Assembly (NCBI GenBank): GCA_016219965.1
Contig: JACRJM010000003.1
Location: 130,299-194,298, forward strand
Source of the DNA: Candidatus Schekmanbacteria bacterium
GTDB lineage: Bacteria > Schekmanbacteria > GWA2-38-11 > J061
Length of the DNA: 64,000 nt
Direction: 5' to 3'
In this document: piece by piece, positions 10,630 through 33,275 of the stretch
Position numbering within the stretch: the first letter of the stretch is position 1
Layout of the letters: each line of letters begins with the position of its first letter
Program-made: the position numbers and the translations under genes
Notes under the pieces: model-generated
What the model was told of the DNA's origin: nothing
What the model saw: only the letters and a program-made list of their open reading frames with translations
The model's database searches: none

Positions 10630-10669
10630 ATACTTTTTAAAATGACAAAATTTAAAGAGGGAAAGAAAC

Positions 10670-11182
10670 ATGTTAGGTGGAAATGAAGGGATAAATGAAA
10701 ACCGAGATAAGGGATTTAATTCCGAAAAGGCTGCTGGCAAGTCTGGCGAAACAAAGAAATTTCTCAGCTTTTTTCTTGGAACAGAAGAATACGGAATAGA
10801 CATTGTTAGTGTCCACGAGATCATTGGTGTATTACCCATAACTTCAATTCCATACACTTCAAATTTTATCAAGGGTGTAATTAATCTTCGTGGGAAGATA
10901 ATTCCGGTAATTGACTTAAGGCTCAAGTTTGAAATGAGTGAAGCTGAATATACAGAAGAAACATGCATAATAGTTACCCAGTCGGAAAACTTACAAGTTG
11001 GTGTCATCGTAGACAAAGTATCAGAGGTTCTAGATATTTCACCCTCTCAAATTGAGGATGTGCCATCTTTTGGAATAAGAACAAATATTGATTACCTTTT
11101 AGGCATCTGTAACATCAGGGGAGGAGTCAAACTTTTGCTTGATATAGATAATGTACTTTCAAGCAAGGCAGCTTCAGCATAA
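10670..11182 (+). CDS. cheW: Chemotaxis coupling protein CheW
   Basis: 170 aa with a CheW fold (FLSFFLGTEEYGIDIVSVHEII…NLRGKIIPVIDLR). Confidence 0.85.
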   Translation: MLGGNEGINENRDKGFNSEKAAGKSGETKKFLSFFLGTEEYGIDIVSVHEIIGVLPITSIPYTSNFIKGVINLRGKIIPVIDLRLKFEMSEAEYTEETCIIVTQSENLQVGVIVDKVSEVLDISPSQIEDVPSFGIRTNIDYLLGICNIRGGVKLLLDIDNVLSSKAASA

Positions 11183-11252
11183 ATACATCGAAACATCTAT
11201 AAAGAATAATTTTGGCAATGAATAAAAATGAATAAAATGGAGGGGAATAGTT

Positions 11253-13736: not shown

Positions 13737-13798
13737 TGCTTAACGCTGTGTAACTATTTTGACTGGAATATTTTTCTGGGGACTTTTGGAGGAAAAAA

Positions 13799-14650
13799 AT
13801 GAGCAATATTTCCGCAAACGAAACTGCACACAGTATTGCAACTTTTCATCTCAAAGAAGCCGAGTTTAAAAAAATTTGCAGGATCGTATACAGTGTATGC
13901 GGAATAGATCTGCACGAAGGGAAGGAAGAACTGGTAAAATCGCGCCTTTCTAAGCGCCTCAGGGCTTTGAATATAAATAGCTTTGAGAATTATCTTACTT
14001 TTATTGAAAAAGAGCCTTCAAAAAAAGAATTAAATTATATGGTAGATATATTGACTACCAATAAAACATATTTTTTCCGGGAATCTCAGCACTTTGACCT
14101 TCTTAAACAAAAAGTCATTCCAAAACTTGATCATTCAAAAATCAGGTTCTGGAGTGCAGGGTGTTCGTCCGGAGAAGAACCATACACTCTTTCCATTCTT
14201 TTAAGGGAAGAAATACCTGATATTGATAAAATTGATGTAAAAATTCTTGCTACAGATATATCCTCAAGGGTTCTCGAAAAAGCAAATTCAGCAGTTTATG
14301 AAAAAGAAGCCTTCAATGATCTTCCTCAGGCATATTTAAGAAAATATTTCACCAGCGTTGGATCTAACTCGCATCAGTCTTTCCGTGTAAATGAGAACAT
14401 AATGAAAACAGTTTATTTTGCACAGCTAAATCTCATGGAACAGTGGCCCATGGCAGGAAAGTTTGATGTCATATTTTGCAGGAATGTTATGATTTATTTT
14501 GACAGACCTACCAGAGAAAAACTGATTAACCGTTTTTGGGATTACTTAGTTCCCGGAGGATATCTTTTTGTAGGACATTCTGAAAGCCTCACAGGACTTT
14601 CGCATCAATTTGGTTATGTTCAGCCAGCGGTTTATATTAAATCCAATTAA
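13799..14650 (+). CDS. cheR: Chemotaxis protein methyltransferase CheR
   Basis: CheR N-terminal and SAM-methyltransferase domains (RFWSAGCSSGEEPYTLSILL). Confidence 0.85.
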   Translation: MSNISANETAHSIATFHLKEAEFKKICRIVYSVCGIDLHEGKEELVKSRLSKRLRALNINSFENYLTFIEKEPSKKELNYMVDILTTNKTYFFRESQHFDLLKQKVIPKLDHSKIRFWSAGCSSGEEPYTLSILLREEIPDIDKIDVKILATDISSRVLEKANSAVYEKEAFNDLPQAYLRKYFTSVGSNSHQSFRVNENIMKTVYFAQLNLMEQWPMAGKFDVIFCRNVMIYFDRPTREKLINRFWDYLVPGGYLFVGHSESLTGLSHQFGYVQPAVYIKSN

Positions 14651-14672
14651 AATAAAGATATGAGGTTTTGTA

Positions 14673-15197
14673 GTGATATATACTGTTGGCATTGCTGATA
14701 TGAAGATTTCGACTCAACATTCTGACATTATAATTACCTATGCTCTTGGAAGTTGTCTTGGAATTACAATTCATGACCCTGTGGCCTGCGTAGGTGCTAT
14801 GCTTCATATCATGCTACCTACTTCTTCAATAGACATACAAAAGGCAGCACAGAATCCCTGCATGTTTGTAGATACAGGAGTGCCCAAACTTTTTAATGAT
14901 TGTTACAAGTTTGGAGCGCGCAAAGAAAGACTTGTCGTGACAGTTGCCGGAGGCGCAAGTCCATTAAGCGTATCCGGGAATGATCATTTTCAGATTGGCA
15001 ACAGGAACTTTATAACATTAAGAAAACTTCTCTGGCATAATGGAGCGCTGCTTAAAGCATATGACGTCGGTGGAACAGTTGCTCGTACCATGTCTCTTGA
15101 GATAGGGACGGGCAAAGTAGTTGTGAAACATAGTGGCGGCGAAACAAAAGTAATTAACATTGACGTCGAAGATTGCAACGTCGGAAGGAGAAATTAA
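14673..15197 (+). CDS. cheD: Chemoreceptor glutamine deamidase CheD
   Basis: Motif ALGSCLGITIHDPVACVGAMLHIMLP; GTG start. Confidence 0.8.
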   Translation: MIYTVGIADMKISTQHSDIIITYALGSCLGITIHDPVACVGAMLHIMLPTSSIDIQKAAQNPCMFVDTGVPKLFNDCYKFGARKERLVVTVAGGASPLSVSGNDHFQIGNRNFITLRKLLWHNGALLKAYDVGGTVARTMSLEIGTGKVVVKHSGGETKVINIDVEDCNVGRRN

Positions 15198-15202
15198 CCT
15201 TT

Positions 15203-15592
15203 ATGCTAAACATACTGATTGTAGACGACAGCGCAGTTATGCGTGCAATGATAATCAAGACATTTAAGCTTTGTGGTATTCCCTTTGGTGAAATAATGGA
15301 AGCTTCAAACGGAAAAGAAGGGATAGATGTTATTGACACCAAGTGGGTTGACCTCATTCTTGCTGATATCAATATGCCGGTTATGAATGGCATAGAGATG
15401 ATAGATAAAATACAAAAAAATCCTCAAACTGCAGATACTCCCATAATAGTGATATCAACGGAAAGCAGCCAACCCAGGATAGAAGCCCTCAAAAACAAGG
15501 GCGTACACTTTGTAAAAAAACCATTTACTCCTGAAATTCTGAGAGAAACCATTACAAATATTATAGGAATAAAATTCAATGGAAAAGATTGA
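15203..15592 (+). CDS. CheY-like single-domain response regulator (second copy)
   Basis: REC domain MLNILIVDDSAVMRA…ILADINMPVMNG…KKP. I start it at the internal ATG 15203, which has a GGAGG RBS, rather than the ORF-track 15173. Confidence 0.8.
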   Translation: MLNILIVDDSAVMRAMIIKTFKLCGIPFGEIMEASNGKEGIDVIDTKWVDLILADINMPVMNGIEMIDKIQKNPQTADTPIIVISTESSQPRIEALKNKGVHFVKKPFTPEILRETITNIIGIKFNGKD

Positions 15593-16049
15593 AAATATAT
15601 TACTGAATGCGGCTACTAATGCTTTTGAACAGTTATGCTTCATGTTTAGTTCTCCTGATGATGAAGATACTGAAAAAAATTTACGTACCTGGGTAGCGTC
15701 GATTGTGAATTTTTCCGGCCCATTTTCTGGTAAATTAATTGTAAGAGCGCACAAAGGGTTGCTTAATGTAATTGCTTCAAACATGCTGGGGGAAGAGGCA
15801 TCAACAGCCAAACAACAGATAGATGCGCTTGGGGAAGTTTCAAATGTCATATGCGGAAGCGTTCTCCCTCAGATTGCCGGAGTAGCAGAGGTTTTTAATC
15901 TTGAAGCTCCGAAAATTCTTCAAAATTCTGAACCTGTATCACCTCAAAATGGAGAAAAAATGGTCTTTGTCAGCATGACTTTGGATGAGGGACGAGTTGA
16001 ATTACAACTTTTCATTAAAGAGGGATTAGAGCTTTTAAAGGAGGTCTAA
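15579..16049 (+). CDS. CheX-type phosphatase (second copy)
   Basis: DALGEVSNVICGS…EAP matches the D-x3-E-x2-N-x21-P motif. Overlaps the preceding cheY by 14 nt. Confidence 0.7.
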   Translation: MEKIENILLNAATNAFEQLCFMFSSPDDEDTEKNLRTWVASIVNFSGPFSGKLIVRAHKGLLNVIASNMLGEEASTAKQQIDALGEVSNVICGSVLPQIAGVAEVFNLEAPKILQNSEPVSPQNGEKMVFVSMTLDEGRVELQLFIKEGLELLKEV

Positions 16050-16050
16050 T

Positions 16051-17112
16051 GTGATCCGTGTACTGGTCGTAGACGATTCAGCGGTTGTAAGGAAAGTATT
16101 GACTGAAGAACTTTCCAAATATGAAGGGATTGAAGTTGTCGGAAGTGCAATAGATCCATATATTGCTCGTGAAAAAATCATCAGCCTTCGTCCTGATGTC
16201 ATAACCCTTGATTTGGAAATGCCAAGGATGGATGGCTTATCGTTTCTTTCAAAGTTAATGAAATTTTATCCATTACCTGTCATAGTTGTAAGTTCTCTTA
16301 CACCTGAAAACAGCGCTACCGCGATTAAGGCTCTTGAACTTGGAGCAATTGATGTAATATGTAAACCTGGTTCTGCTTATTCCATACCCAATGTATCTCA
16401 TCGTTTAGTAACTGCCATACGTGCTGCCGCAACTGCCAAAGTTGTCAAAATGCAGGATGTTAGCGAGAGCCAATCTTCTGTTGCATCGATAAGCGGATTT
16501 CAGCTTCAAACTACACATAGAATTATAGCTATTGGAGCATCAACTGGAGGAACAAAGGCAATAGAAGCTGTTCTGACTAAATTGCCTCCTACAACGCCAG
16601 GTATAGTTATAGTGCAACACATGCCTGAATATTTTACCGCAGGATTCGCAGAAAGACTTAACCAGATATGCAGAATGGAGGTAAGGGAGGCCAAGAACAA
16701 TGACCCTGTTGTACCGGGCGTTGTTCTGATTGCACCGGGTAATTACCATATGGTTTTGGAAAAATCAGGTGCTCGTTATTTCGTAAAGATAAAAGATGGC
16801 CCCTATGTCCACTATCAGCGTCCAAGCGTGGATGTACTGTTCCATTCTGTTGCAGCTAATGCCGGAAGAAATGCAGTCGGCGCCATTTTAACAGGAATGG
16901 GGGCTGATGGAGCTCAGGGACTTTTGAAAATGAGAGAAAACGGAGCACATACTATTGCTCAAGATGAACAATCATGTGTTGTCTTTGGAATGCCAAAAGA
17001 AGCTATAAATCTTGGGGCAGCTGATGAAATAGTTCCACTGCAGGACGTAGCACAGGCATTACTAAATGCCCTGGTTGATAACGATAATATAAGACAGGTT
17101 AAGACAGCCTGA
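16051..17112 (+). CDS. cheB: Chemotaxis response regulator protein-glutamate methylesterase CheB
   Basis: REC domain plus CheB methylesterase domain (IAIGASTGGTKAIEAVL…GMGADG). GTG start with AAAGGAGG RBS. Confidence 0.85.
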   Translation: MIRVLVVDDSAVVRKVLTEELSKYEGIEVVGSAIDPYIAREKIISLRPDVITLDLEMPRMDGLSFLSKLMKFYPLPVIVVSSLTPENSATAIKALELGAIDVICKPGSAYSIPNVSHRLVTAIRAAATAKVVKMQDVSESQSSVASISGFQLQTTHRIIAIGASTGGTKAIEAVLTKLPPTTPGIVIVQHMPEYFTAGFAERLNQICRMEVREAKNNDPVVPGVVLIAPGNYHMVLEKSGARYFVKIKDGPYVHYQRPSVDVLFHSVAANAGRNAVGAILTGMGADGAQGLLKMRENGAHTIAQDEQSCVVFGMPKEAINLGAADEIVPLQDVAQALLNALVDNDNIRQVKTA

Positions 17113-17190
17113 GAAGTAAAATATGTTTAAAAACTACAATAATGCGGAATGTAGCATGTATACCACTATATTCAAAGGAGGTAAAAAACC

Positions 17191-18045
17191 ATGAGCAGAC
17201 TTGATGAAATCATGGAGAAAGTAGATAAGTTACCTCCTTTTTCGAATGTTGTTGGCAGGGCAGCAGCCTTATTCAGCAACCCTGAAATAGAGCCAGAAGA
17301 AATAGTAGATGTAATTAAATTTGAACCTGCCATTACTGCAAACGTCCTGAAAATATGTAATTCTGCTTATTATGGCCTTATGAGAAAAGTAAGTTCCCTC
17401 AAGGAAGCAGCAACATATCTCGGGACCGAAGAACTCCTGAAAATTGCACTGGCAAACGGCATGGCTGATGTATTGAAAGACAATATAAAGGGCTATGATC
17501 TTAAAGAAGGGGAACTCTTTAAACATTCTATCGGATGTGCAATAGCATCCCAGTTGTTATCAAAAAAACTTTTTGTTCAGAATTCGAATATACTTTTTAC
17601 AGGATCTCTTTTGCATGATATCGGCAAGCTCATCTTAAGTGAATTTGTAAATGAGGAATACAATAATATACATAGGATGGTTGTTGAAAAACAATGTTCA
17701 TTCATAGAGGCTGAACGAGAGATACTTAACACAGATCATGCGGAGATAGGTGGTTTTTTAGCTGATGAGTGGAAATTTCCTGAGGAGCTCAAGGCAATAA
17801 TAAAATATCATCATGAGCCTGCAAAAGGCCCTGAATCGCAGCAACAGAATATCGAAATAGTTCATGTAAGCGATCTGTTGTGTCTTATATCCGGGATAGG
17901 GATAGGATCTGATGGTATGGCTTACAGGGCATCGCTCCAGCAAATTAACATTATAAAGCTTATTGACAGTAGCCTTGAATCACTTATATGCGACCTTATT
18001 ACAGAACTTGAGAAAGTGAGTACTTCATACAATCTCAGCAATTGA
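17191..18045 (+). CDS. HDOD domain protein
   Basis: HD-related output domain (…NVLKICNSAYYGLMRKVSSLKEAATYLG…HDIGKLIL). Last gene of the che operon. Confidence 0.7.
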   Translation: MSRLDEIMEKVDKLPPFSNVVGRAAALFSNPEIEPEEIVDVIKFEPAITANVLKICNSAYYGLMRKVSSLKEAATYLGTEELLKIALANGMADVLKDNIKGYDLKEGELFKHSIGCAIASQLLSKKLFVQNSNILFTGSLLHDIGKLILSEFVNEEYNNIHRMVVEKQCSFIEAEREILNTDHAEIGGFLADEWKFPEELKAIIKYHHEPAKGPESQQQNIEIVHVSDLLCLISGIGIGSDGMAYRASLQQINIIKLIDSSLESLICDLITELEKVSTSYNLSN

Positions 18046-18063: not shown

Positions 18064-18951
18064 TTACTCTGGAAATCCCTCTACTTCTCTGCAGAACTCG
18101 TTGGCTCTTAGTCCCTGGGTCCTTACTAAATTTATCATATCAATTCTTTTTTGCGTAAACCATGCTTCACGCAAAGGCCTGTCGGATATGTTTGAGACCG
18201 GATCCACCCATGCTCCAGCTTCACAAGGACAAAGTATAATATTCCCGTCAGTGGTAATTGACATTTCGTTTTCTATGAAATAACAACTTCTGGAATCAGG
18301 TACGCAGGGAATTGCCTCTTTGTCTAAATCACCGCCTCTTAAACGATATGAAGGGAACTGTACCTTTTTTATCCCCAGCTCGTTAAAGAACTTTTTAAAT
18401 TCCTCCCATCCTTCTGAAACCGTAATGGGAAGCTGTATTTTGGAAATCCAGACCTCTGCCGTTGAACCGGTCTTATGTTTGATATCCATAAACCTTTCTA
18501 CATTCTCCAATACCACACTTAACGGCAGGCCTCTTATGTATTTATATAACTCGTGGTTTAACGTATCAATGGAAAAAACTATTATGTCTGTATTACTTTC
18601 GAGGAGCCTGTAAGCTCTTTCCTCGTTGAGCAGATAACCTGTTGTTGTTATCCAGTTTGCAATCCCTTTGCTATTAGCCCTTTTCATAAAGCCGTATATC
18701 CTGTCGTCACAAAGGGGATCGTTAATCCACTCCCAGTTTATAAAACACTCCCAGTCAATCTCGTCCAGGATCTTATCGATCATCCAGTCAGGCATCAGCT
18801 TGTTCTTGCGTGTTTGAAGAACCTTGCTTCTGGGGCACATTATGCAGTTAGCCGGACACTGAGTTGTCGTCTCAATGGAAAAGTATGCCGGAAGATGAAG
18901 TCCTTCCCATACGTCCTGACCTGGGTAACGGAGAATAGCGTTCTCAGCCAA
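18064..18951 (-). CDS. Radical SAM enzyme with C-terminal SPASM/twitch domain
   Basis: CPANCIMCP (Cx3Cx2C) near the N-terminus. The C-terminal Cys cluster is CPCEAGAWVD…. Confidence 0.7.
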   Translation of the reverse strand: MAENAILRYPGQDVWEGLHLPAYFSIETTTQCPANCIMCPRSKVLQTRKNKLMPDWMIDKILDEIDWECFINWEWINDPLCDDRIYGFMKRANSKGIANWITTTGYLLNEERAYRLLESNTDIIVFSIDTLNHELYKYIRGLPLSVVLENVERFMDIKHKTGSTAEVWISKIQLPITVSEGWEEFKKFFNELGIKKVQFPSYRLRGGDLDKEAIPCVPDSRSCYFIENEMSITTDGNIILCPCEAGAWVDPVSNISDRPLREAWFTQKRIDMINLVRTQGLRANEFCREVEGFPE

Positions 18952-21850
18952 AGCAAACTCCCTTTTCCAGTATTCTGTTCATGTCTGCTAACTCTTCATG
19001 CCTGTTAACCTGCTTATGCCCCTCATACCAGTATCCAAGCGTATTCCCTATCTCGGAAGCAACAATCTTAAACAATGCTTCTGAAAAATCTTTTTTTCCT
19101 ATTTTTAATGAGTTATGATTTTCAAGAATATATTTCATGAGATTTTTCATTTGCTCATTAAAGTTAGAAAACATGTGGTTGTATTTGAATGGGTTGCCGC
19201 TGCCTTTATGTCCATTGGTACAATTAATTTCAAGGAGCAGATTTTTTAGACTTGCTTCATCACAGGCAGTACCATTGAATTTTCTTACCTTGTCATAGAA
19301 ATTTTCTGTTGATTCATTTAACAGTTGAAGAAATGCCTTGAAATCATTGGGTGTTATGTTTGCCTGCGGTTCCCACTCAGAAATTGACATCTTTATTGTG
19401 TCATAGAGAACCCATGATTTATGGGCTATATCCCTAAGTGAAGATATATGGAGAGTTTCAAAATTGGGCACCTCATTTCCGAGAAGCTCTGTAAATGCCT
19501 TCATGCCATTGTAATTCCTCTTAAGGAAATAATCAGCATTCTTGTAGTGCCAGTGATATACCCCGCAGGAATAAAGAAATCCAAGGTGCTCTCCGTTCCG
19601 TGCCATTCTCATCCCTGCCTCGATGTCCTCGGCGTTTGATATTTTTTTAAATCCATATTTAAGGAGAGATTTCTTTGAATAACATGCACAAACATTGTCA
19701 ATAAATGAGACTTTTCTCTTTAATTGCTCCGGCAGACAGTCAAAAGATTCTTTGTCCTGTAAATAGTATTCTACGTCCCTGTCAAATCCGTAGGAGTTAT
19801 ATGTTATATCGGTAATCCATCTGCTGTAAAGGTCGGCATCAGAATTTACCATCTGCCTTATTGAGAGAGCTGCAAGCTCAGGAGATGCCTTAAAAGTTTG
19901 AGCTATCTTGTATAACAGATAATCGCTGGCAGGAAGGGCATCATGTACCGTATAGAGGACATAATCGCCGCTTGCGTGTTCCGCTGCCAGCTGCCTCGTC
20001 GCACCATGATTAAAAGATTCCCTTGGTATCTGAACAATCTTTGCTCCATTCTTTGCAGCAACTTCCAATGTGCCGTCAGTGGAACCTGAATCTATAATAA
20101 CTATCTCAACATCCTTCACCTTCTTTTGTTTTTTTATTTTATCCATAAGAGCTATAAATTGCTGCCCACCGTTCAATACTGGGATTACTATTGAAAATTT
20201 AGCATCAGCACAGCTGGCATCAGATATATTGCTTTTTATGGGATTGAATGTCATCAACTTGCTTAATGTCTTATTCAAAGTGGCACTTCTATTGAGGAAT
20301 TTCTGATTTGTATGGTCCAAAAGATTATTCAATTCCCTGTTCTTTTCAAGCTCGCTCTGATAGCGTTTATGCATCATATCTATTATGCTTACAGTCCCAT
20401 CAAATGCTTTAGCTTTAAAGATATAGTCGTCACTGTCCGCAGTTGACTGGCCATTTGCAGGTTCAACAGAATTAGATGTTTCTTTTTTATCCATTTTATC
20501 ATCAGCGGCAAAAACAGAATCATCTACCATGATTTTTTCAAGAAATGAGTAGTCGACACCTTTTACCTTTGCAGCCATTTTCCCGCGGTTTGACATATCT
20601 TCCACAGAACCATCGCACATGATAAGGTTGTTTTTCTTATAGAAGTCAAAAAGAGTACTTCCCGGGACAGGAGTGTAAAGGGCCGGCGAATAATGGATAG
20701 GCTTGACTTTTAATACTCCAGCCACTGTCATTATATCATCTTCTTTATGCCAGCCTGTATCAGTGGGGATGCCTAAAATATAATTTGCCCAGATCTTTAC
20801 ACCATACTTGTGTAATATTTCTGTAGCCCTGAAATTGTCCTCGGGAGTTGCCTTCTTGTTAAACCATTTTAATATCCTTGGGCTGAAAGACTCAAAGCCA
20901 ATAATAAGAAATGCAAGGCCAGAGCCTGCCATTTTTTCTATTAAATCCTCGTTCTTGCAAATTACATCTGCCTTAGAAGATGTAACCCATTTGAAACCGC
21001 TCTTTACAAAGCCTTTATCATGAAGAGCCTGCGTGAATTCTTCCACCCACTCGCGGGACATTATAAACTGGTCATCATGAAACATGGCAGACCTGATACC
21101 ATACTTATCCCTAAGCATCTCTAACTCTGCAATCACATTTTCAACACTTCTTCCCCTGATATAGGAAATGCGTTTGCCATCCTTATCAAGCCTTGTGTAA
21201 AGTTGATGTTCTCCGGGTCCGCAGCAGAATGTGCAGTTAAAGGGACAACCTCTGGTATTCATAAGTTCAGCCATAGGGAGAGGGAAATGAAATTTTTTCA
21301 AGCCAAAGGGCTCGCAGTTCATTCTTACATCATAATCCGACCAGATCTCCCTGTCAGGAAACGGGATCTGGTTTAAATCAGGAGTTTTCCCCCAGGAATA
21401 TTTCGGGAACTTTGATGGGTTTTCAATAAGCTCTGGAAAACTTATTTCACCTTCTCCCTGTATTACATAGTCAAAGGCGCCTGTCTTAAGACATTCCTCG
21501 GGAAACATAGTAGGGTGAATGCCACCCGCAACCCTCATAGCTTTTGGGAGGATGGCAGAGGCTATTTTTCCTGCTTCTACAGCTATTGAAAATTCCACAG
21601 AATGGATTGAAAATCCTATTACGTCAGGAGAATTTTTCTTTAACAAAGTCTTATATTCATCCCAGCCGGAAAGCATCCTGAAGTCCACAAGGAAAACCTC
21701 ATGTCCTTTAGATTTAAGCGCTCCCGCCAGATAAGCTAGTCCAAGACGTATGAAAATACTGTCAGGAGATGGTTTTTTTAAATCAGCATCCCACGAACTA
21801 TAGGCTAAGGCTGGATTGACTAAAAGAACTTTTGCCATTTTCCTCTCCAA
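18944..21850 (-). CDS. Fusion protein: B12-binding (class B) radical SAM domain + GT2 family glycosyltransferase + unknown C-terminal domain
   Basis: The N-terminal 150 aa form a cobalamin-binding-like Rossmann region (KVLLVNPA…DVIGFSIHS). Radical SAM CPFNCTFCCGP follows. A GT2 domain starts near residue 555 (FSIVIPVLNG…IIDSGSTDGT). The last roughly 200 aa resemble nothing I recognise. Confidence 0.65.
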   Translation of the reverse strand: MERKMAKVLLVNPALAYSSWDADLKKPSPDSIFIRLGLAYLAGALKSKGHEVFLVDFRMLSGWDEYKTLLKKNSPDVIGFSIHSVEFSIAVEAGKIASAILPKAMRVAGGIHPTMFPEECLKTGAFDYVIQGEGEISFPELIENPSKFPKYSWGKTPDLNQIPFPDREIWSDYDVRMNCEPFGLKKFHFPLPMAELMNTRGCPFNCTFCCGPGEHQLYTRLDKDGKRISYIRGRSVENVIAELEMLRDKYGIRSAMFHDDQFIMSREWVEEFTQALHDKGFVKSGFKWVTSSKADVICKNEDLIEKMAGSGLAFLIIGFESFSPRILKWFNKKATPEDNFRATEILHKYGVKIWANYILGIPTDTGWHKEDDIMTVAGVLKVKPIHYSPALYTPVPGSTLFDFYKKNNLIMCDGSVEDMSNRGKMAAKVKGVDYSFLEKIMVDDSVFAADDKMDKKETSNSVEPANGQSTADSDDYIFKAKAFDGTVSIIDMMHKRYQSELEKNRELNNLLDHTNQKFLNRSATLNKTLSKLMTFNPIKSNISDASCADAKFSIVIPVLNGGQQFIALMDKIKKQKKVKDVEIVIIDSGSTDGTLEVAAKNGAKIVQIPRESFNHGATRQLAAEHASGDYVLYTVHDALPASDYLLYKIAQTFKASPELAALSIRQMVNSDADLYSRWITDITYNSYGFDRDVEYYLQDKESFDCLPEQLKRKVSFIDNVCACYSKKSLLKYGFKKISNAEDIEAGMRMARNGEHLGFLYSCGVYHWHYKNADYFLKRNYNGMKAFTELLGNEVPNFETLHISSLRDIAHKSWVLYDTIKMSISEWEPQANITPNDFKAFLQLLNESTENFYDKVRKFNGTACDEASLKNLLLEINCTNGHKGSGNPFKYNHMFSNFNEQMKNLMKYILENHNSLKIGKKDFSEALFKIVASEIGNTLGYWYEGHKQVNRHEELADMNRILEKGVCFG

Positions 21851-21883
21851 TATTTATAAAAAATTATTTTATCTGCGCGACGC

Positions 21884-23005
21884 TCACAGGAAGCATACGT
21901 GTTCTTTGGGTCTTGTGATATTCCATAATACCTGATTAAATGTGTTGCACCTGCACAATGGGATACAGTCATCAAAATCTATTTTTTCGCAGGCCTCTTT
22001 CCGTTCTTCCGAATTCCAAACCTCTGCAAGACTTTTTTCCTTGAGATCCCCGATACAATACTTTTCATAACCTCTGAGATGGCAGCAGATGTACATCTTG
22101 CCGGTTGCGGCAATAACCGTAGCAAACTGGTGGCCATAGCATTCCTTGTAATTCCTTCCATAATCTTTCGAGTTCATCATGTCGTATTTATGTTTTGAAT
22201 GGAGGACATCAAAGGCATTGCCGCTGTATTTTATACATTTCGCAATTTCCCTCGTAACATCTTCCCAGTTGTATTCAAAATTTCCGCCGCGATGTATCTG
22301 CATTGGACGAAACTGGATATAGTCAACTCCCATATCTCTGCAAAGGATAGTTGCTTTTTCCAAATCACCGCTTGTCTCCCTGCTGGTCAGGTATCCTACT
22401 CCCACTGTGGCGTTGCTTTGTAATTCCTTTTTCATTCTTGTCAGCATTCGTATATTCTCTACAACCTTGTTAAAAGCATTTCCGTCCCTTCCATGCGTTT
22501 TCAAGAATACTTCAGGGGTTGCAGCATCAAGAGAAACCCTTATCCATGTGCAATTTTTCAGAAGCTTCTCTGCTGACTCTTCTTTTAGAAGCTGGCCATT
22601 TGTGATAAAACCGACATCTATACCTCTTGATTTTGCACGCTCGACTATATCAGGAGTATCAGGATGGCATAATGGTTCTCCGCCGCCGGTAAAAATCAAT
22701 CCCCTTGCTCCTTCTTCGCCTAATTGATCTATAATTGATTCTGCCCTTTCCCTTGAAAGGGAATTACTGTCTGTAAGCTGGTAATAACTTACAACGCACT
22801 CCGGGCACTTGTGATTGCATACATTTGTCATATCTATTTCAACAGTAATAGGTGGAGGATTATCTCCATCTATCCATGCGCTGACCCTGTCCAAATGTTG
22901 CAGAATTTTCTCAGAACTGAACTGTTTTACATCATTAAGCTTTTCCTTAAGGTCGGGGATAAATTCTATGATGTTTTCTTTTTTTGGTGCTGCAGCGCCC
23001 TTCAT
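21884..23005 (-). CDS. Radical SAM enzyme with SPASM domain (first gene of the operon)
   Basis: CNHKCPECV (Cx3Cx2C) with a C-terminal Cys-rich SPASM region. I start it at the internal ATG (MKGAAAPKK), which has a perfect AAAGGAGG RBS 6 nt upstream. The ORF track extends to 23056. Confidence 0.7.
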   Translation of the reverse strand: MKGAAAPKKENIIEFIPDLKEKLNDVKQFSSEKILQHLDRVSAWIDGDNPPPITVEIDMTNVCNHKCPECVVSYYQLTDSNSLSRERAESIIDQLGEEGARGLIFTGGGEPLCHPDTPDIVERAKSRGIDVGFITNGQLLKEESAEKLLKNCTWIRVSLDAATPEVFLKTHGRDGNAFNKVVENIRMLTRMKKELQSNATVGVGYLTSRETSGDLEKATILCRDMGVDYIQFRPMQIHRGGNFEYNWEDVTREIAKCIKYSGNAFDVLHSKHKYDMMNSKDYGRNYKECYGHQFATVIAATGKMYICCHLRGYEKYCIGDLKEKSLAEVWNSEERKEACEKIDFDDCIPLCRCNTFNQVLWNITRPKEHVCFL

Positions 23006-23057
23006 AAAAAATCCTCCTTTTAATAAATAAAAATGCTCATAGATAAAAAATACCAAG

Positions 23058-23072
23058 CCTCTTTAAGCAATA
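23058..23072 (-). promoter_or_regulatory. Sigma-54 (-24/-12) promoter for the radical-SAM operon
   Basis: The minus strand reads TGGCAG-gatta-TTGCT, an almost perfect TGGCAC-N5-TTGCW. It sits about 40 nt upstream of the RBS/ATG at 23005. Confidence 0.5.
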
Positions 23073-23298
23073 ATCCTGCCAAAGGTTTATTAGAAGGAGA
23101 AGGGATTATTATCAGACAATAACCATTTGATATTTATATTTTTTTTGAAGCGGTGCCTTTTTTCTCAATAGAGCATTCTTAAACAATTATTGTGGAAAAG
23201 ATTGCCCATTGAGGAGAAAAATTAGCCTGGTGAAATGATTATCAGGAAATTGATTTCATGCTGAGTACTTCTTAAGATAGGGGAGCAAATTTACTTCT

Positions 23299-23703
23299 TC
23301 AGGATTTATCAACAAGGTACTGAAAAGAGTATATTTGAAGGTTTTTTATAAGGTTTTGCTCGACCTCCTTGCATACGGTATGTATGGGGCATGTTGCCTT
23401 CCTTTTGCATACATCTTCCCCGTTTACGCATATATTTATAAGTGGTAATGCTTCCATTGCTTTAACAACATCAAAAACAGTCAACTGACTAGGTGTTACG
23501 GCCAATGAATAACCGCCGCCTTTACCCCTCTGGGATTGCACGATTCCTTGTTTGTTCAGACGGTGCATTATTTTGGCAACAAATGGGCGAGGTATTTCTT
23601 CGTCGGCAGACAGGGCATCTATCCTGGAAAACCCTTTTTCCTGTTTTGACAGGTTTAAAACGCACCTTATTGCATAATCTGTATCACGCTTAATACGTAA
23701 CAT
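23299..23703 (-). CDS. Rrf2-family (IscR-like) transcriptional regulator
   Basis: N-terminal wHTH DYAIRCVL…S..EIP..F.AKI. Three cluster-ligand cysteines (CVNGEDVCKRKATCP). Confidence 0.75.
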   Translation of the reverse strand: MLRIKRDTDYAIRCVLNLSKQEKGFSRIDALSADEEIPRPFVAKIMHRLNKQGIVQSQRGKGGGYSLAVTPSQLTVFDVVKAMEALPLINICVNGEDVCKRKATCPIHTVCKEVEQNLIKNLQIYSFQYLVDKS

Positions 23704-23765
23704 ATATTATCTGTAAATAGCTAAAAAAACACAAAGTCAATATTTTTTTTAAAATATTTATTATT

Positions 23766-24740
23766 TTAGCCATTAATTCTTTTTGCCATACGGTCAAGAT
23801 ACCCGGAAAGCTTTAACTTTATAGACTGAAGAGTATCGAACTCATTTACAACTATGCGCTTAAGCATTAACCTGCTGTCACTGAAAGTATTCAGACCGAA
23901 AACTGTGGAACAGGTATTTTCATAGCCTGATGATGAAAAAACCTGTGCGTTAATATTTCTGAAGTATTTTTCTCCTCCAAAAGGCATGGCGAAGGACAAT
24001 ACTTTTTTTGATGTGACAGATTCGAGGTATTCCCTTGAATGAGTTAATTCTTTTTTGATCTCATCCTTTCCGAGCATGCTGAAATCAGCATGGGAATGAC
24101 TGTGTGAGGCAACTTCAATAAAAGGAGAGGAAATATGTCTGACATCCTCTGCGGAAAGAAAATTCCTTTCAATATAACCGAATAGCATATTTACATTAAG
24201 AATCTTTTCAACAAGACTTCTTGTTTTTCCCTGATTATTAGAGGCAAGTATTGAAGTAATTGATCTTTTTAGCAGGAGATGATTTTTACTTTTAGTGATA
24301 TGCAATTCATTAAGAAGCATTTCGAATGAATCTTTGTTGTTTAATGCAGCCTCAATATATATATATAATGGAATCGCATCCCCTGAAAGTATTCCCGTAG
24401 GAAGAAAAAATGTGCAGGGTATATTGCTTTTATCAACTAGAGGTATCACATTGCTGATTAATGATTTGTAGCCATCATCAAAGGTAATGGCAACAAAGGG
24501 TTTCCCCCCTTCTGAAATTTTGCAATTGGCAATATGATCTGCCACTTCAGAAAGCGGAACTATCCGGAAATATTTTTTAAGGAAAAAGATATGCGATTCA
24601 AAATCTTTTACCGTGCAGCTTACAGTCCCATCGTAATAAAAATTTTCATTTGAATCCTCGTCATTTTCATCAATTATCCTGTGGTAGGCAAGTATAGGAA
24701 AACAGCTCTTCTTGAGCTTTGAGAGAGAAGAATCAAGCAT
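23766..24740 (-). CDS. Polysaccharide deacetylase (CE4/NodB family)
   Basis: NodB motif VAITFDDGYKS and a His-rich SHSHSHADF motif. Confidence 0.65.
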   Translation of the reverse strand: MLDSSLSKLKKSCFPILAYHRIIDENDEDSNENFYYDGTVSCTVKDFESHIFFLKKYFRIVPLSEVADHIANCKISEGGKPFVAITFDDGYKSLISNVIPLVDKSNIPCTFFLPTGILSGDAIPLYIYIEAALNNKDSFEMLLNELHITKSKNHLLLKRSITSILASNNQGKTRSLVEKILNVNMLFGYIERNFLSAEDVRHISSPFIEVASHSHSHADFSMLGKDEIKKELTHSREYLESVTSKKVLSFAMPFGGEKYFRNINAQVFSSSGYENTCSTVFGLNTFSDSRLMLKRIVVNEFDTLQSIKLKLSGYLDRMAKRING

Positions 24741-24825
24741 TTTCTGCTGCGTTTTCCCTTTGAGAAGGAAAGATAGTGCAGATGTAAGAATCCGTTCATT
24801 GTCTCTTAAGAATTTTGAAAATATC

Positions 24826-25731
24826 TCAATAGTATGTCCTTCCCATTAATTTATTTATTTTTTTTATGGTTTCAGCGCTTAAGACATTGTCATCTTTCCT
24901 GACAGCCTGTATTTTTTTTATACCATGAACCAATCCCTTTAAGTAATGCTTTAATGATGATGTACGCATACTTTCCAAAAATACAAAAACGCTCCATAAA
25001 AGACTATGGATAATGGCATAGCGGAGAGGCAGATATTTAAAAGCAACGTTAATTCTATTTTTTATGAGATAATATGAACGCTGACCCTCTGATTTTCCTG
25101 ATGGCGACATAAAGTGTTTTATTTTTACGTCCGGTATAAAGAAAATATCTATTCCCTTTTCCATCAGTCTGAACGAGAAATCAAGCTCTTCGCAACCAAA
25201 GAAATATTCTTCAGGGAGTAGGCCTATATCTTCAAATATTTTTTTTCTGAAAGCGCAGGCTCCCCCGAAAAAATAGGAGCATGCTGTATCTGAATCAAGT
25301 CTTTTCCCGCGCCGGACAGGATAACCACCATGGTCTATATTCTTCCCTCTGCTCTCAGGTTTTATATCTTCAATCTTGAAACTAAGAGCACCGGCAGAAG
25401 GGTATCTGTCAAAAGATCTGATGATGTTTTGTATATCTTCATTAGAAGAAAAGCATGCATCATCATCAATAAAAATGACAAACTTTCCTGAAGAGTTTTT
25501 TATACCAATATTTCTTCCACCTGCAACCCCGGTGTTTATTTCAGATTTTACCTGTTTGAGATCCATTCCATTGAAAAGTGCAATCTGTTCATTGCTGCAA
25601 TTAACACCGTTTTCAACAAGGATTATTTCAAAATCCTTAAATGTCTGGATTTTGAGGCTGTCTGCAAGGGAGTGGAGTTCTTTTTCCCGTTCCATAGAAG
25701 ATATCACAACGACTATACTGATTAAAGGCAT
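24826..25731 (-). CDS. GT2 family glycosyltransferase
   Basis: GT-A fold motifs ISIVVVISS…EIILVENG…FIDDD. Confidence 0.7.
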   Translation of the reverse strand: MPLISIVVVISSMEREKELHSLADSLKIQTFKDFEIILVENGVNCSNEQIALFNGMDLKQVKSEINTGVAGGRNIGIKNSSGKFVIFIDDDACFSSNEDIQNIIRSFDRYPSAGALSFKIEDIKPESRGKNIDHGGYPVRRGKRLDSDTACSYFFGGACAFRKKIFEDIGLLPEEYFFGCEELDFSFRLMEKGIDIFFIPDVKIKHFMSPSGKSEGQRSYYLIKNRINVAFKYLPLRYAIIHSLLWSVFVFLESMRTSSLKHYLKGLVHGIKKIQAVRKDDNVLSAETIKKINKLMGRTYY

Positions 25732-25869
25732 GGTATTCTTCTTTAAAAAAGTGAATAAAATACTAATAAAAGATTTTTATTTAGATTGCCAGTCCAAAGA
25801 GACATGGTAAACTTGTTTTTATTATTAATTAATAGCAATAGATATTGGCATCTTTAACATTTTATTGAA

Positions 25870-28476
25870 ATGAAAACACAGACTAAAATTATTATCTTAT
25901 TGTCCTTTCTAATATTTATCTTTATTTGCGGTCTGGTATCGCTGCAGTATTTTCAACTTCAGAAGGCAGAGCACATTTCTAATGAAAGTAAAATCTACAG
26001 AGAGAAGATGTTTGATAAAATCATCGATATTAAAGGCAAGACACTGGAAGGCTTTACCAATGATTATAGCTACTGGGATGGGATGGTAAGTCTGGTTTCA
26101 CAGCCTTTGGATAAAAAATGGGCGTATGAAAATATAGATATTGTAATTCATAATTACAATGTTCAGGTGGTCTGGGTTTATACGAAAAATTTTTCCAATG
26201 TATATTCTACGAACAGTTTTAATGATGAAAAACTGAAGGGAAACCTCCTGTCTGAAGAAGCGCTGAAGAAAATCTTTAAAACAAATCTTTTCCCACATTT
26301 CTTTGTTAACACAAGCCGCGGACTAATGGAAATCAGGGGAGCCCCGATTCAGGCTACTGCCGACAGCAAAAGGGAAACAACTCCATCAGGATTTCTTATT
26401 GCCGGACGTTTATGGGATAGCATTTATATTAATGAAATTTCGGAGTTGGTGGACGGTTCTATAATACTCTCTGATTTTGCAGGTAATAAGAAGCAGGATG
26501 CTGACCATCCCAATGAACAGGATGTTATCGAATTTTCAAAAATATACAATGGATGGGATGGTAAACCCCTGGTATTCGTTAATGTATCTGCTAATTCCCA
26601 TATAATGACAGAGATCAACCAATGGTCCAAAAATGTGTTTTTCATATTCATGGTCTTTTCTCTGGCTATTTTAATTATTATCCCTGCATTTATTATCCGC
26701 TGGGTTACAACCCCTTTGAATAAAATATCGCAGAGCTTGAATCAAGATGCCCCTGATGCAATTGAGAGTCTGAGGGAAGAAAAATCAGAATTTGGCAATA
26801 TAGCAAAACTGATTGCAGAGTTTTTCAGACAAAGAAGCGAACTGAAGGCAGTTGTTAACGAGATGGAAATAAGAGTTCAGGAGAGAACATCTGAGATAGC
26901 GAAGGTAAATGAAAATCTCCGTTCTGAGATCATTGAGCGGGAAAAAGCAGAAGAGTTCATTAAAAATATCCTTGAAACCGTTGACGAAGGCTTCATCGTT
27001 GTAGACCGCGAGTACAGGATAATATCTGCAAACAATGCTTATATAAAACAGGCAAATATACCTTTGAAAGATATAATAGGCAGGCACTGTTATGAAGTAT
27101 CCCATAATGTAAGCAGACCATGTTATGAGGAAGGTGAGGATTGTGCCGTCAGGCATACTTTTTCTTCGGGCAACCCACATACTTCCATCCATACCCACCG
27201 GGACAATGATAACCGCCCTGTTTATGTGGAAACAAAAACTTATCCAATGAAAAACGAGTCAGGAGAAATAATTTCTGCAATAGAAATTGTTAATAATATT
27301 ACTGAAAAAAAGAAGCTTGAGGCTCAGTTGCGTCATTCTCAAAAGATGGAAGCAGTGGGCCAGCTTGCAGGAGGTGTGGCGCATGATTTTAACAACATAC
27401 TTACTGCCATAATCGGTTACGGCACTATGCTGCAGAGGAAAGTTGGAGATAACAACACGTTAAGAACATATGTAGATACCATTCTTTCCTCAGCTGAAAG
27501 AGCAGGTAATCTTACCAAGAGCCTTCTTGCATTCAGCAGAAAACAGATAATGGAGCCAAAACCTGTAAACCTCAATCAATTAATAAATGAAGCAAAGAAA
27601 CTTCTTTCAAAGCTCGTAAACGAAAAAATAGAGTTTAAGGTGACGCTTTCAGATCAGGATATGGTTGTCATGGCAGATAGCGGCCAGATAGAGCAGGTGC
27701 TGATGAACCTTGTAACGAATGCAAAGGATGCGATGCCTGACGGAGGCACTTTACAGATTACTACAGAGATTGCAGAAACTGAAGATGAGTATATTAAGTT
27801 CCCAGCCTTTATGAAACCCGGCAGATATGTTCTAATTTCTATTTCGGATACAGGTATTGGAATGGATGATGATACAAAGGAAAAAATATTTGAACCATTT
27901 TTTACTACAAAAGACCCAGGGAAAGGCACTGGACTCGGGCTGGCGATAGTTTATGGCATAGTAAAACAGCATAACGGTTATATAGAAGTTAACAGCGAAT
28001 TTTCGCAGGGGACTACTTTTAAAATATATCTTCCGCTCATTGAATCCATTGCTGAAAAAAAAGGAGACAGTGCAGCATTATTACTGCCTAAAGGGAATGA
28101 AACAATATTGGTAGCAGAAGATGAACTCTCTGTAAGGGAAATTGTAAGAATGCTCCTCGAAGAACAGGGATATAAGGTAATAGAAGCTGTTAACGGCGAA
28201 GATGCGGTGAAAAAGTTCACTGCTAATAAAGACAGCATCGAGCTTATTCTCCTTGACCTTATGATGCCTCAGAAAGATGGCAGGACTGTTTATGAGGAAA
28301 TAAAGAAGATAAGGCCGGGAATTAAGGCGATTTTTATGAGCGGTTATTCTGAAGAGACTGTCAGTATATCAGGGATTATTAAGGATAAACTGCACTTCAT
28401 CCCGAAGCCGATTTCGCCGGAAAAACTTTTATTTAAGATACGAGAGGCAATTTCTGGTGATGGTCACCCTGCCTGA
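25870..28476 (+). CDS. Hybrid sensor histidine kinase (periplasmic sensor–PAS–HisKA–HATPase–REC)
   Basis: TM segments at about 8-28 and 254-276. The PAS domain contains a Cys/His cluster ([24 protein letters not shown]). H-box [12 protein letters not shown], HATPase G-boxes and a C-terminal REC (ILVAEDE…LILLDLMMP…KP). Confidence 0.8.
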
Positions 28477-28525: not shown

Positions 28526-30589
28526 TTAGTTTTTTACAGGTACGAAGAATCTTGGTTTTACAGGACCTTTTTCCCCTTCAGGAGTCTGCCAGACAAGCAT
28601 GAATCTGGCGCTTCCGGACTTTTTTATTGATATATCGATCAGGTGGAATCCGGCATCAGCCTGTACGCTGTAAGTGCTGATACTATTTTCACTGCTTAAA
28701 GGATGTATCTTGGATTTGTCTATTGAAAATTCAATGTTGCCTTTGGACAAGAGAGCGAATCTGTATGTCCCGCTGGCAGGGAACAACAACATGGTATCTA
28801 TGGATATTGATCTTATTTTTTCCGGTACAATCGGATTATCCCAGTAGCCTGTCATGGCAAGCCATATTTTTTCCGGATTATCGCTGTATTCTCGCTGTAT
28901 TGACATTAATACTGATTTGCGTGAAGGTACGATTCTCCTCTCTTCGTCACGGATAATGTTCTCAATTGATTTGTAAACAGAAATAAGCTGTACCCCTTCG
29001 GATGAAACTGTGTAGTCAGGAATCATGTAATCATAGCAGAACCATTCAAGGCTTTTAAAAACTCCCTGTCTGCTGTTGAGCACCAGATAATCATAAGACT
29101 TGTTGAATGAATAGGCATCAGTCGTGCTGTATCCGTTTTCTATGAACGAACTGTCAATATATCCATTTTTATTATAAAATTTGAGCTGTCTTAATTCATC
29201 AGGCAATGCGCAATAAAGGATCTTCTTCCCTTTGTAACGCTCTTTGAGAACATAAAGAAAATCCTTATTGAAGGTATCTCCCCAGTAAGTAGTTTCAAGC
29301 TTTATCTTCTGCGCGCCACTTAACCCTCCGATCAAAATGTTATAGTATGAAAGTTCGTAGGGATGTATCATCAAGAGCGAGACAAAAGGGAATATGAGGA
29401 ATAAAGAACATGCTGCTATTCTGTGCCATACTTTTTTCCCATAGCGGTCAACAATCATAGCGGCACCTATTCCGCTTAGTCCTGCAATAAAAGTAAATGC
29501 CGGAAGGAAAAGCCGCACACTATCATATTTTGGAATACCCGGAGACGATGCTGCGCCGAGCATCACTGCTGCATTGACGAGGAAAAGCAACATCATACTC
29601 ATTTTCTGATCTGTAATTTTTCCTGATCTTTTCCCTTCTTTTATTATGTTTATAATACTTGCAATTGCCGCTATAAGCATTAATGGCGGAACAGTAAAAA
29701 TGACCATGACAGGTACATAGTGCCACGGGATATCCCAGGATTTTAATTCGCCGAGATAATAGGTGAATTTAAAATTTGTTGAAAGATCTCCTATCTGGTC
29801 TTGCTCAAAACCCATGGCACGATTAAATGTATTGTGCCAGAGCCATGGCCATGAAATAATGAATACAGGGAACGTAAAAAAAGTCATTGAGAGGAAATTC
29901 ATCTTTGCCCGTCTGTCGCGGGTAAGTATATACCAGATTACTAAAGCTGCCGGTATAAGAAGTGCATGGATCTTTGTAGAAAGAGAAAGCCCAAGCAGTA
30001 TCCCTGTTGCAAGCGCCCACCGCCTGCTTTGAAGTCCGTAAACAAATGAGAAAACCGTTAGAAACCACATAGCTGAGATTGGGGTATCCAGGGCAAAGAT
30101 ATGCGCGTGCCCGAAGACATGAGGCATAAGTATTAAAGAGACGCTTGAAAGAAGGCCTGCCATTGCGCCAAAATATTTTGAAACAAGGAGAAAAAGCAGC
30201 ATGCTCTCGATGGCAAAAAAAACTGCGGAAGGGAGTCGATATGCCCTGTATTCACCAATTACGTCTTTGAGGGAATACCATGAAAGCCCCCCCATGAACC
30301 TGGCAAGAGGAGGGTGCCAGTTTACCCTGTCTCCACCTTCTACAAGTGCGCCAAAATATTTGTCAGCAACCTCCTTAGAAGCAAAACTTAAATCTCCTCT
30401 TTTAATATCGTGCACTGCAAGTTTTAGCCAGTCTGTATAAAGCTTAGCCGCATCATCATTAATGTAGACCTCATCCCAGGATATTCCTATGTCAGTCAGG
30501 GTAAAAAGCACCGGCAGAAAGGAAAAAATAAAAACCAACAGTCCCGATATTTTCCTGTTTTCCCTTAACATGGCAGCAAGACTCTTCAT
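28526..30589 (-). CDS. GT-C fold membrane glycosyltransferase (PMT/ArnT-like) with a C-terminal periplasmic domain
   Basis: About 11 TM helices. The first-loop motif DIGISWDEVYIND (DE motif) is present. The last roughly 200 aa are soluble. Confidence 0.5.
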   Translation of the reverse strand: MKSLAAMLRENRKISGLLVFIFSFLPVLFTLTDIGISWDEVYINDDAAKLYTDWLKLAVHDIKRGDLSFASKEVADKYFGALVEGGDRVNWHPPLARFMGGLSWYSLKDVIGEYRAYRLPSAVFFAIESMLLFLLVSKYFGAMAGLLSSVSLILMPHVFGHAHIFALDTPISAMWFLTVFSFVYGLQSRRWALATGILLGLSLSTKIHALLIPAALVIWYILTRDRRAKMNFLSMTFFTFPVFIISWPWLWHNTFNRAMGFEQDQIGDLSTNFKFTYYLGELKSWDIPWHYVPVMVIFTVPPLMLIAAIASIINIIKEGKRSGKITDQKMSMMLLFLVNAAVMLGAASSPGIPKYDSVRLFLPAFTFIAGLSGIGAAMIVDRYGKKVWHRIAACSLFLIFPFVSLLMIHPYELSYYNILIGGLSGAQKIKLETTYWGDTFNKDFLYVLKERYKGKKILYCALPDELRQLKFYNKNGYIDSSFIENGYSTTDAYSFNKSYDYLVLNSRQGVFKSLEWFCYDYMIPDYTVSSEGVQLISVYKSIENIIRDEERRIVPSRKSVLMSIQREYSDNPEKIWLAMTGYWDNPIVPEKIRSISIDTMLLFPASGTYRFALLSKGNIEFSIDKSKIHPLSSENSISTYSVQADAGFHLIDISIKKSGSARFMLVWQTPEGEKGPVKPRFFVPVKN

Positions 30590-32055: not shown

Positions 32056-32126
32056 AAAAAGTTAAAAAAGATATAGTCAATCTACTTATACTACAAATCA
32101 TTGAAGTGATATTACATAAAATTTAA

Positions 32127-33272: not shown

Positions 33273-33275
33273 AAA

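Follow-up and report, generated by a model that had tools for sequence, protein, structure and literature searches.

What are three radical S-adenosylmethionine (SAM) enzymes, encoded in a row and one of them fused to a glycosyltransferase (GT), doing in a Candidatus Schekmanbacteria genome? The question is raised by positions 18064-25731 of a 64-kb stretch of contig JACRJM010000003.1 (the whole stretch is hereafter "the window"), which hold six minus-strand genes, all in the same direction, for a GT2 glycosyltransferase, a CE4 polysaccharide deacetylase, an Rrf2 regulator, a SPASM radical-SAM enzyme, a fusion of a cobalamin (B12)-binding radical-SAM core to a second GT2 domain (B12-rSAM/GT2), and a small radical-SAM enzyme. 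This gene content, proposed in an initial annotation, was confirmed by the coordinates of the open reading frames (ORFs), Pfam and NCBIfam. The unit conserved across genomes is the radical-SAM trio (SPASM enzyme, B12-rSAM/GT2 with a helical tail, and small enzyme; 18064-23005), and on balance we favour the view that this trio, driven by a sigma-54 promoter, is a glycan-tailoring module. Its features, together with a palindrome further upstream, are as follows:

23231-23258, strand unassigned: candidate regulator palindrome, imperfect, 13+13 nt (inverted-repeat search)
23081-23066, minus strand: sigma-54 (-24/-12) promoter TGGCAGGATTATTGCT (consensus match and comparative recurrence)
21884-23005, minus strand: SPASM radical-SAM enzyme, 373 aa (MBI5374359; PF04055 82.2 bits, PF13186 38.7 bits)
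18944-21838, minus strand: B12-rSAM/GT2 fusion, 964 aa (MBI5374358; PF02310 65.7 bits, PF04055 73.4 bits, PF00535 58.2 bits)
20510-21838, minus strand: N-terminal half of the fusion, cobalamin-binding and radical-SAM core (PF02310, PF04055)
18944-20317, minus strand: C-terminal half of the fusion, coiled linker, GT2 and helical domain (PF00535, structure model)
18064-18951, minus strand: small radical-SAM enzyme, 295 aa (MBI5374357; PF04055 45.3 bits, SPASM 20.3 bits)

The start of the SPASM gene was corrected to ATG 23005 (first ORF 21884-23056; ribosome-binding site AAAGGAGG) and that of the fusion to ATG 21838 (first ORF 18944-21850; ribosome-binding site GGAGAGG), both in agreement with the NCBI proteins, while the TTG start of the small enzyme overlaps the stop codon of the fusion by 8 nt. 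From the GT2 gene to the small radical-SAM gene, the intergenic distances are 85, 62, 293 and 45 nt, followed by this overlap. The six proteins (MBI5374357-62) are annotated at NCBI with generic names only, in a Candidatus Schekmanbacteria metagenome-assembled genome (MAG), and the trio is flanked by a chemotaxis operon (6359-18045) and a hybrid histidine kinase gene.

Loci related to the module, given here by their L numbers, were gathered from scans of 185,579 species genomes (17 loci) and from metagenomes (14 loci). In nearly every locus of sufficient length, tblastn places the B12-rSAM half (aa 5-447; 44-73% identity) ahead of the GT2/helical-tail half (aa ~512-967; 31-56%). The two halves are fused in the clade of the window (L001, L003, L007-L010, L013, L020, L039, L040) and occur as adjacent genes elsewhere (L006, L017-L019, L021-L023, L025-L029, L041, L043-L045, L050), the pair as a whole spanning Nitrospirota, Acidobacteriota, delta/Thermodesulfobacteriota, Elusimicrobia and Schekmanbacteria; such alternation between fusion and adjacency speaks for a functional coupling of B12-rSAM and GT2. 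The whole trio is syntenic in two distant loci, L010 and L028 (Nitrospiria), at 55-74% identity, with a SPASM homologue (69% and 74% identical, respectively) directly preceding the B12-rSAM, GT2 and small radical-SAM parts. Every family member found comes from a MAG or a metagenome and bears a generic name, and L038 matches the window block at about 93% identity. Conservation of the neighbourhood, which the initial annotation had put forward as a check, thus holds for the trio and for the B12-rSAM/GT2 pair and fails for the upstream GT2, CE4 and Rrf2 genes.

The proposed promoter, TGGCAGGATTATTGCT, is intergenic, ends 60 nt 5' of ATG 23005 and departs from the sigma-54 consensus TGGCACG-N4-TTGCW at one position, so that by sequence, with its GG and GC 10 nt apart, it qualifies as a sigma-54 promoter. 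TGGCA-N6-TTGCW has no other match in the window, a single occurrence that is not significant alone (0.48 expected by chance; at least one match in 40 of 100 shuffles), and the case for a real promoter is therefore made from its position and its comparative recurrence and not from the bare number of matches. A count over 391 kb of sequence from 24 non-redundant related loci gave 32 occurrences of TGGC[AC]-N7-TGC[AT] on the gene strand vs. 3 on the opposite strand (shuffle mean 5.5). In L001/L014, L006/L015, L017, L019, L022, L024, L025 and L027, a site falls in the 300 nt ahead of the B12-rSAM gene, and overall a sigma-54 site precedes this gene in about ten lineages. Such recurrence bears out the promoter first read from the window, and suggests that sigma-54 control is a conserved property of the B12-rSAM gene family. 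In L038, TGGCAGGATTATTGCT is identical, the two regions being 94% identical and as such too close for promoter footprinting. As a separate observation, a 732-aa ORF of the window (59242-61440, plus strand; MBI5374391) fuses in frame an NtrC-type sigma-54 activator (receiver, Sigma54_activat and HTH_8 domains, aa 6-443) to a full LpxC (aa 461-728); the same protein is found in a second assembly, and an NtrY-like kinase gene lies upstream (57014-59227).

The promoter falls between Rrf2 and the trio, which makes two transcription units more likely than one. A single conserved operon of all six genes is not supported, GT2, CE4 and Rrf2 accompanying the trio in near-identical genomes only. No convincing terminator was detected after Rrf2: the minus-strand RNA at the palindrome has a minimum free energy of -9.7 kcal/mol (z = +1.3 vs. 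shuffles), and a hairpin at 23226-23246, flagged on the plus strand only as a possible intrinsic terminator, was not used as evidence. The palindrome itself (23231-23258; TGAAATCAATTTC-CT-GATAATCATTTCA on the minus strand, 77% complementary) is located ~150 nt 5' of the sigma-54 site, and one may speculate that it is a binding site for an activator or for Rrf2.

All three enzymes of the trio belong to the radical SAM superfamily (PF04055 at 82.2, 73.4 and 45.3 bits, against Pfam cut-offs of 29.5 bits for PF04055, 32.1 for PF02310 and 21.5 for PF13186). Each carries a CX3CX2C motif (C63/67/70 in the SPASM enzyme, C202/206/209 in the 968-aa numbering of the fusion, and C32/36/39 in the small enzyme), the cysteines of which are invariant across two homologue alignments. 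None has a transmembrane segment, hence all are predicted to be soluble, and none of the radical-SAM proteins reaches a curated NCBIfam equivalog cut-off.

The 373-aa enzyme is of the SPASM/twitch type (PF13186 38.7 vs. 21.5 bits; conserved C289, C307, C308, C347 and C351) and its family is both large and tightly conserved (847 matches, ~60% identity). In the PDB, its closest matches by sequence are BlsE and DesII (E-values of 3e-8 and 8e-8 for the pair), and the top fold match of its AlphaFold model (predicted local distance difference test, pLDDT, 80) is again DesII (E 7e-18, TM-score 0.62-0.66), followed by SuiB, CteB, SkfB, BlsE, anSME, MoaA and viperin. DesII is a TDP-4-amino-4,6-dideoxyglucose deaminase and BlsE a cytosylglucuronate decarboxylase, i.e., both act on nucleotide- or nucleoside-linked sugars. 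By sequence and model comparison, the nearest characterised relatives of the SPASM enzyme thus work on nucleotide-linked sugars or nucleotides, the similarity being distant: identity to DesII and BlsE is 16-19%, the DesII model TIGR04426 scores 51 bits vs. a cut-off of 450, and the enzyme falls in a family of its own.

Two other roles were considered for the SPASM enzyme and seem unlikely. A part in anti-phage defence was suggested by the PADLOC pVip (viperin) model, which matches the 373-aa protein at 70.9 bits over the radical-SAM core only (aa 53-201; model positions 3-149 of 262); this similarity is generic and confined to the viperin core, NF038283 gives 60.5 bits against a cut-off of 180, and the other five proteins show no PADLOC match or a negligible one. 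A role as tungsten-enzyme maturase was raised by TIGR04317, the top NCBIfam match of both non-fused radical-SAM proteins, which reaches 101 and 78 bits vs. 380, again over the radical-SAM core only. A tungsten-type aldehyde:ferredoxin oxidoreductase (AFOR) gene does lie just upstream of the window, ~20 kb from the trio; it and a ThiS/MoaD-like gene (L037, 133-2230) precede the first gene of the window (FrhB-like, 755-1996). The stretch examined on this upstream side, which yielded AFOR, ThiS and FrhB genes, showed no flagellar gene.

The N-terminal half of the fusion is assigned to the class-B (cobalamin-binding) radical-SAM proteins by its PF02310 match (65.7 vs. 32.1 bits, aa 33-141). It shares the N-terminal B12-binding Rossmann domain and radical-SAM core of QCMT, TokK, GenK/Fom3-type enzymes, AprD4, HpnJ/HpnR and BchE, and differs from these in reaching no curated subfamily model and in having a GT2 (or sulfotransferase) partner. 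Its best PDB matches are 9CCB (1.4e-9), recognised as the protein glutamine C-methyltransferase QCMT (PMC12931638), then AprD4 and TokK; its top NCBIfam match is the RiPP (ribosomally synthesised and post-translationally modified peptide) enzyme ApyD, at 109 bits vs. a cut-off of 750. On these sequence matches the half is best regarded as a generic class-B enzyme, with 59-73% identity to homologues from Nitrospirota, Desulfobacterota and Elusimicrobia. Class-B radical-SAM enzymes are mostly C-methylases.

The C-terminal half is predicted to be soluble, with no transmembrane segment, and combines a GT2 domain of GT-A fold with a conserved all-helical domain, the final ~270 aa being without a Pfam match. 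Fold matches of the GT2 half (model pLDDT 81.5) are RmlT, TarP, TarS and PcManGT, and the helical C-terminal domain yielded no specific structural match. TarP, TarS and RmlT are likewise soluble, of GT-A type and extended by C-terminal helices, and they decorate a pre-formed polymer in the cytoplasm; however, TM-scores are 0.33-0.41, identities 13-17%, and the helical tail itself finds no specific counterpart among structures. The fusion is rare, with nine full-length homologues among 5.8 billion clustered proteins, and we know of no characterised class-B radical-SAM enzyme with a fused or adjacent GT2 and helical tail.

In four further proteins, with 67-73% identity across the N-terminal half, a sulfotransferase domain replaces the GT2. 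In some Nitrospirota, a sulfotransferase domain is found N-terminal to the B12-rSAM core (L006, 10001-12064; L019, 4175-6289), and in loci of this type GT2 and helical tail are encoded apart from it, in a protein that has its own methyltransferase domain. One full-length homologue of the fusion (52% identity; L013, JACAEJ010000084.1) comes from a contig that was assigned to a Nitrososphaerales archaeon MAG, which may reflect either a binning error or horizontal transfer.

The 295-aa enzyme, taken for a second SPASM enzyme in the initial annotation, falls below the SPASM cut-off (PF13186 20.3 vs. 21.5 bits) and has few auxiliary C-terminal cysteines (C223, C241, C243, C287), which makes it twitch-like at best. 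Its family is small, with 13 proteins at E ≤ 1e-10 among 5.8 billion, and partners 55-63% identical to it adjoin the fusion in L001, L008, L009, L010, L028 and L039, often with an extra N-terminal extension of ~220 aa.

The relatives of the module sit in GT-rich islands, where the commonest neighbour is a Glyco_trans_1_2 (CgeB/DUF3880-type) protein of ~560 aa (15 loci) and where Maf_flag10-like, TPR-GT, methyltransferase-GT, sulfotransferase and NDP-/CMP-sugar enzyme genes are common (NDP-sugar epimerases/dehydratases in L003, L006 and L009). Six distinct loci (L001, L006 (= L015), L016, L019, L021 and L027) have flagellin, FliD, FliS or FlaG-like genes on the flanks of the B12-rSAM gene, with MotA, MotB and FlbD also present in L001. 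Members of the SPASM family occur elsewhere in radical-SAM-rich glycan clusters with GT2, GT4, GT9, Wzy_C and PMT_2 proteins. These neighbourhoods fit the glycan-directed product envisaged in the initial annotation. The better comparison for the module is accordingly with flagellin-glycosylation and surface-glycan islands, and not with hopanoid tailoring: as in the flagellin glycosylation islands of Campylobacter, Helicobacter, Aeromonas and Pseudomonas, relatives stand beside flagellin, FlaG-like, FliD and FliS genes and share Maf_flag10-like, TPR-GT, methyltransferase-GT and NDP-/CMP-sugar genes, and the related loci carry sigma-54 promoters, as do sigma-54-controlled flagellar regulons. The window differs from these islands in having no flagellin gene, linkage to flagellar genes being a property of the six related loci; moreover, we know of no described flagellin glycosylation island that uses radical-SAM enzymes.

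Three of the radical-SAM-rich clusters illustrate the range of these settings: L030 (1-15065) holds DegT, a B12-rSAM, five more radical-SAM genes, GT4, a carbamoyltransferase and GT2; L034 (1-15068) several radical-SAM genes, GT2, GT4, GH5, GT9 and PMT_2; and L011 (1-17068) a giant GT, GT9 and Wzy_C. From their gene content, clusters of this kind, with four to six radical-SAM genes amid GTs, look like a wider and apparently unstudied radical-SAM-rich glycan class.

How might such a module work? The substrates, chemistry, order of steps and role of Rrf2 given here are those that we infer. The DesII/BlsE-like SPASM enzyme would carry out a radical transformation of a nucleotide-activated or glycan-bound sugar, the B12-rSAM domain would methylate or otherwise rearrange the same sugar at an unactivated carbon, the tethered GT2 would transfer the modified sugar to its acceptor in the cytoplasm, and the small radical-SAM enzyme would add one further radical step. 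Going by the neighbourhoods of the relatives, the acceptor there would most likely be a flagellin glycan or another surface glycoconjugate. More specifically, we tentatively propose, as a possibility short of an expectation, an undescribed route in which a sugar is radically C-methylated or rearranged and passed directly to a tethered GT under sigma-54 (flagellar-type) control. The superfamilies involved are known, and what appears to be new is the module as a whole, i.e., the fusion, its two radical-SAM partners, the sigma-54 control and the glycan-island setting. That no described pathway matches, as first suspected, agrees with the unreached NCBIfam cut-offs, with the distance of the PDB matches and with a full-text literature search, which returned nothing relevant for radical-SAM enzymes with flagellin glycosylation or glycosylation islands or for SPASM enzymes with nucleotide sugars or polysaccharides; the literature found on Schekmanbacteria consists of ecological surveys.

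To our knowledge, radical-SAM chemistry on sugars comes almost solely from antibiotic pathways (DesII, BtrN, GenK, AprD4, BlsE). If the glycan-tailoring interpretation is true, new branched, deoxy or methylated sugars would be expected on the flagella or envelopes of environmental bacteria, nitrifiers included. Under the more specific direct route, the flagellin or surface glycans of Nitrospirota, Acidobacteriota, Desulfobacterota, Elusimicrobia and Schekmanbacteria would involve chemistry unseen in characterised glycans. The module would then be one example of the wider group to which L030 and L034 belong, and its natural fusion of a radical-SAM enzyme to a GT would represent a compact system for coupled radical tailoring and glycosyl transfer.

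Several observations weigh against this interpretation. Flagellin, FliD, FliS and Glyco_trans_1_2 genes were absent from the window when searched with local hidden Markov models (HMMs), so that its link to flagellin is by homology only, and the flanks of the two other full-trio loci, L010 and L028, hold no flagellar genes either. No sigma-54 activator gene adjoins the trio, the sole one in the window being the distant activator-LpxC ORF at 59242-61440. The best PDB and NCBIfam matches of the B12-rSAM half, QCMT and ApyD, modify proteins or peptides, and the fold of the SPASM enzyme is generic, with SuiB, CteB and anSME ranking close behind DesII. These last matches lead to an alternative in which the radical-SAM enzymes modify a protein, flagellin or another surface protein, the B12-rSAM domain C-methylating a side chain, the SPASM enzymes cross-linking or oxidising it, and the GT2 glycosylating the same protein. 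SPASM enzymes are mostly peptide maturases, SuiB, CteB, SkfB and anSME are all among the fold matches, QCMT is the closest solved relative of the B12-rSAM half, with ApyD its top NCBIfam match (109 vs. 750 bits), and flagellin genes adjoin the module in six related loci. However, in both sequence and fold the SPASM enzyme comes closest to BlsE and DesII, which are sugar-nucleotide enzymes; the peptide-enzyme matches are all far under their family cut-offs, and GT-rich clusters surround the family even where flagellin is not nearby. Nor was a small precursor ORF found: as the initial annotation had noted, the 293-nt gap upstream of the SPASM gene contains no plausible RiPP precursor, its only ORFs being of 20-29 aa and lacking ribosome-binding sites. 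In L028 a MerR gene occupies the upstream position, and L010 offers only 151 nt of upstream flank. A protein target for the radical-SAM enzymes therefore seems to us unlikely.

A lipid product was hinted at by the initial comparison to the hopanoid genes hpnI, hpnK and hpnJ; here, GlcNAc would be placed on a polyol lipid by the GT2 and deacetylated by the CE4 enzyme, and the B12-rSAM domain would contract or rearrange a ring. The same enzyme classes are indeed co-located (GT2, deacetylase, B12-type radical-SAM), and the HpnJ and HpnR models do match, but at 88.3 vs. 577.6 bits (TIGR03471) and 96 vs. 650 bits (TIGR04367), while the HpnI and HpnK models have no match at E ≤ 0.01. HpnK moreover belongs to the YdjC family, not CE4. 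No squalene-hopene cyclase, HpnH or other hopanoid core gene was found among window ORFs of at least 150 aa, the GT2 and CE4 genes are not co-conserved with the radical-SAM genes, and relatives lie in flagellar and glycan islands, all of which makes the resemblance superficial and a hopanoid-like head-group tailoring very improbable. We give a rather small but somewhat better chance to the six genes having no joint function at all: the GT2/CE4 pair would be generic, the Rrf2 would be Fe-S-sensing and serve a regulon of its own, and the trio would stand apart from both. This would account for the 293-nt gap, with its own promoter, that parts Rrf2 from the trio, for the lack of GT2, CE4 and Rrf2 in all distant loci, and for the lower GC of the GT2 gene. 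Against it, the gene order is kept in L038, which is weak evidence at ~93% identity, and small regulators are repeatedly encoded directly ahead of homologous modules (MerR in L007 and L028, Rrf2-like in L020).

The glycan-tailoring interpretation of the trio leaves aside the three upstream genes, which are:

24826-25731, minus strand: GT2 glycosyltransferase, 301 aa (MBI5374362; PF00535 63.7 bits)
23766-24740, minus strand: CE4 polysaccharide deacetylase, 324 aa (MBI5374361; PF01522, Polysacc_deac_1, 64.5 bits)
23299-23703, minus strand: Rrf2 regulator, 134 aa (MBI5374360; PF02082 108 bits)

These co-occur with the trio in near-identical assemblies only (L038, where the order GT2-CE4-Rrf2-SPASM-fusion is kept, and a 71.7-kb contig), and from this distribution they are best seen as a separate, lineage-specific accessory unit outside the conserved module. 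The GT2 has a single hydrophobic segment (aa 234-252), a rhamnosyltransferase model as top NCBIfam match (TIGR01556, 58.7 bits vs. a cut-off of 200), and in other loci only 21-32% tblastn matches to generic GT2. Around it, GC falls to 0.345 across 24001-26000 (the GT2 gene and a divergent promoter region) vs. ~0.40 on either side, a low value typical of variable glycan genes. The CE4 protein shows the metal and catalytic motifs TFDDG and HSHSH in its translation, has neither a signal peptide nor a transmembrane segment, and was seen with the trio in L038 only (89% identity). Pairing a GT2 with a deacetylase is generic, as in PgaC/PgaB, MshA/MshB and HpnI/HpnK; here the two may supply a de-N-acetylated hexosamine.

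The Rrf2 protein scores above the TIGR00738 cut-off (101.9 vs. 73.3 bits) and has four cysteines spaced like cluster ligands (C92-x6-C99-x5-C105-x5-C111), which places it among the Fe-S-type Rrf2 regulators; it misses the equivalog cut-offs of IscR, NsrR, RirA and SufR, and it may provide Fe-S-linked regulation. MerR-family genes lie directly upstream of homologous radical-SAM modules in L007 (2724-3062) and L028 (8405-8779), and an Rrf2-like gene upstream of that in L020 (9422-9826; 23% identical, opposite strand). This recurrence of small redox- or metal-type regulators suggests that the link to a regulator is not accidental.

Elsewhere in the window, an ArnT-like PMT with a TPR partner is encoded at 3306-5541, and the radical-SAM protein at 37318-38331 (plus strand) belongs to the AmmeMemoRadiSam system (TIGR04337, 364 vs. 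220 bits) and is unrelated to the trio. A second glycan region at 28526-35155 includes two PMT_2 (GT39/GT-C) enzymes, a GT4, a second CE4 and an ArnC-like polyprenyl-phosphate GT2 (118 bits, under the cut-off), which suggests periplasmic glycosylation from lipid-linked sugars and possibly, though not necessarily, relates to the radical-SAM trio.

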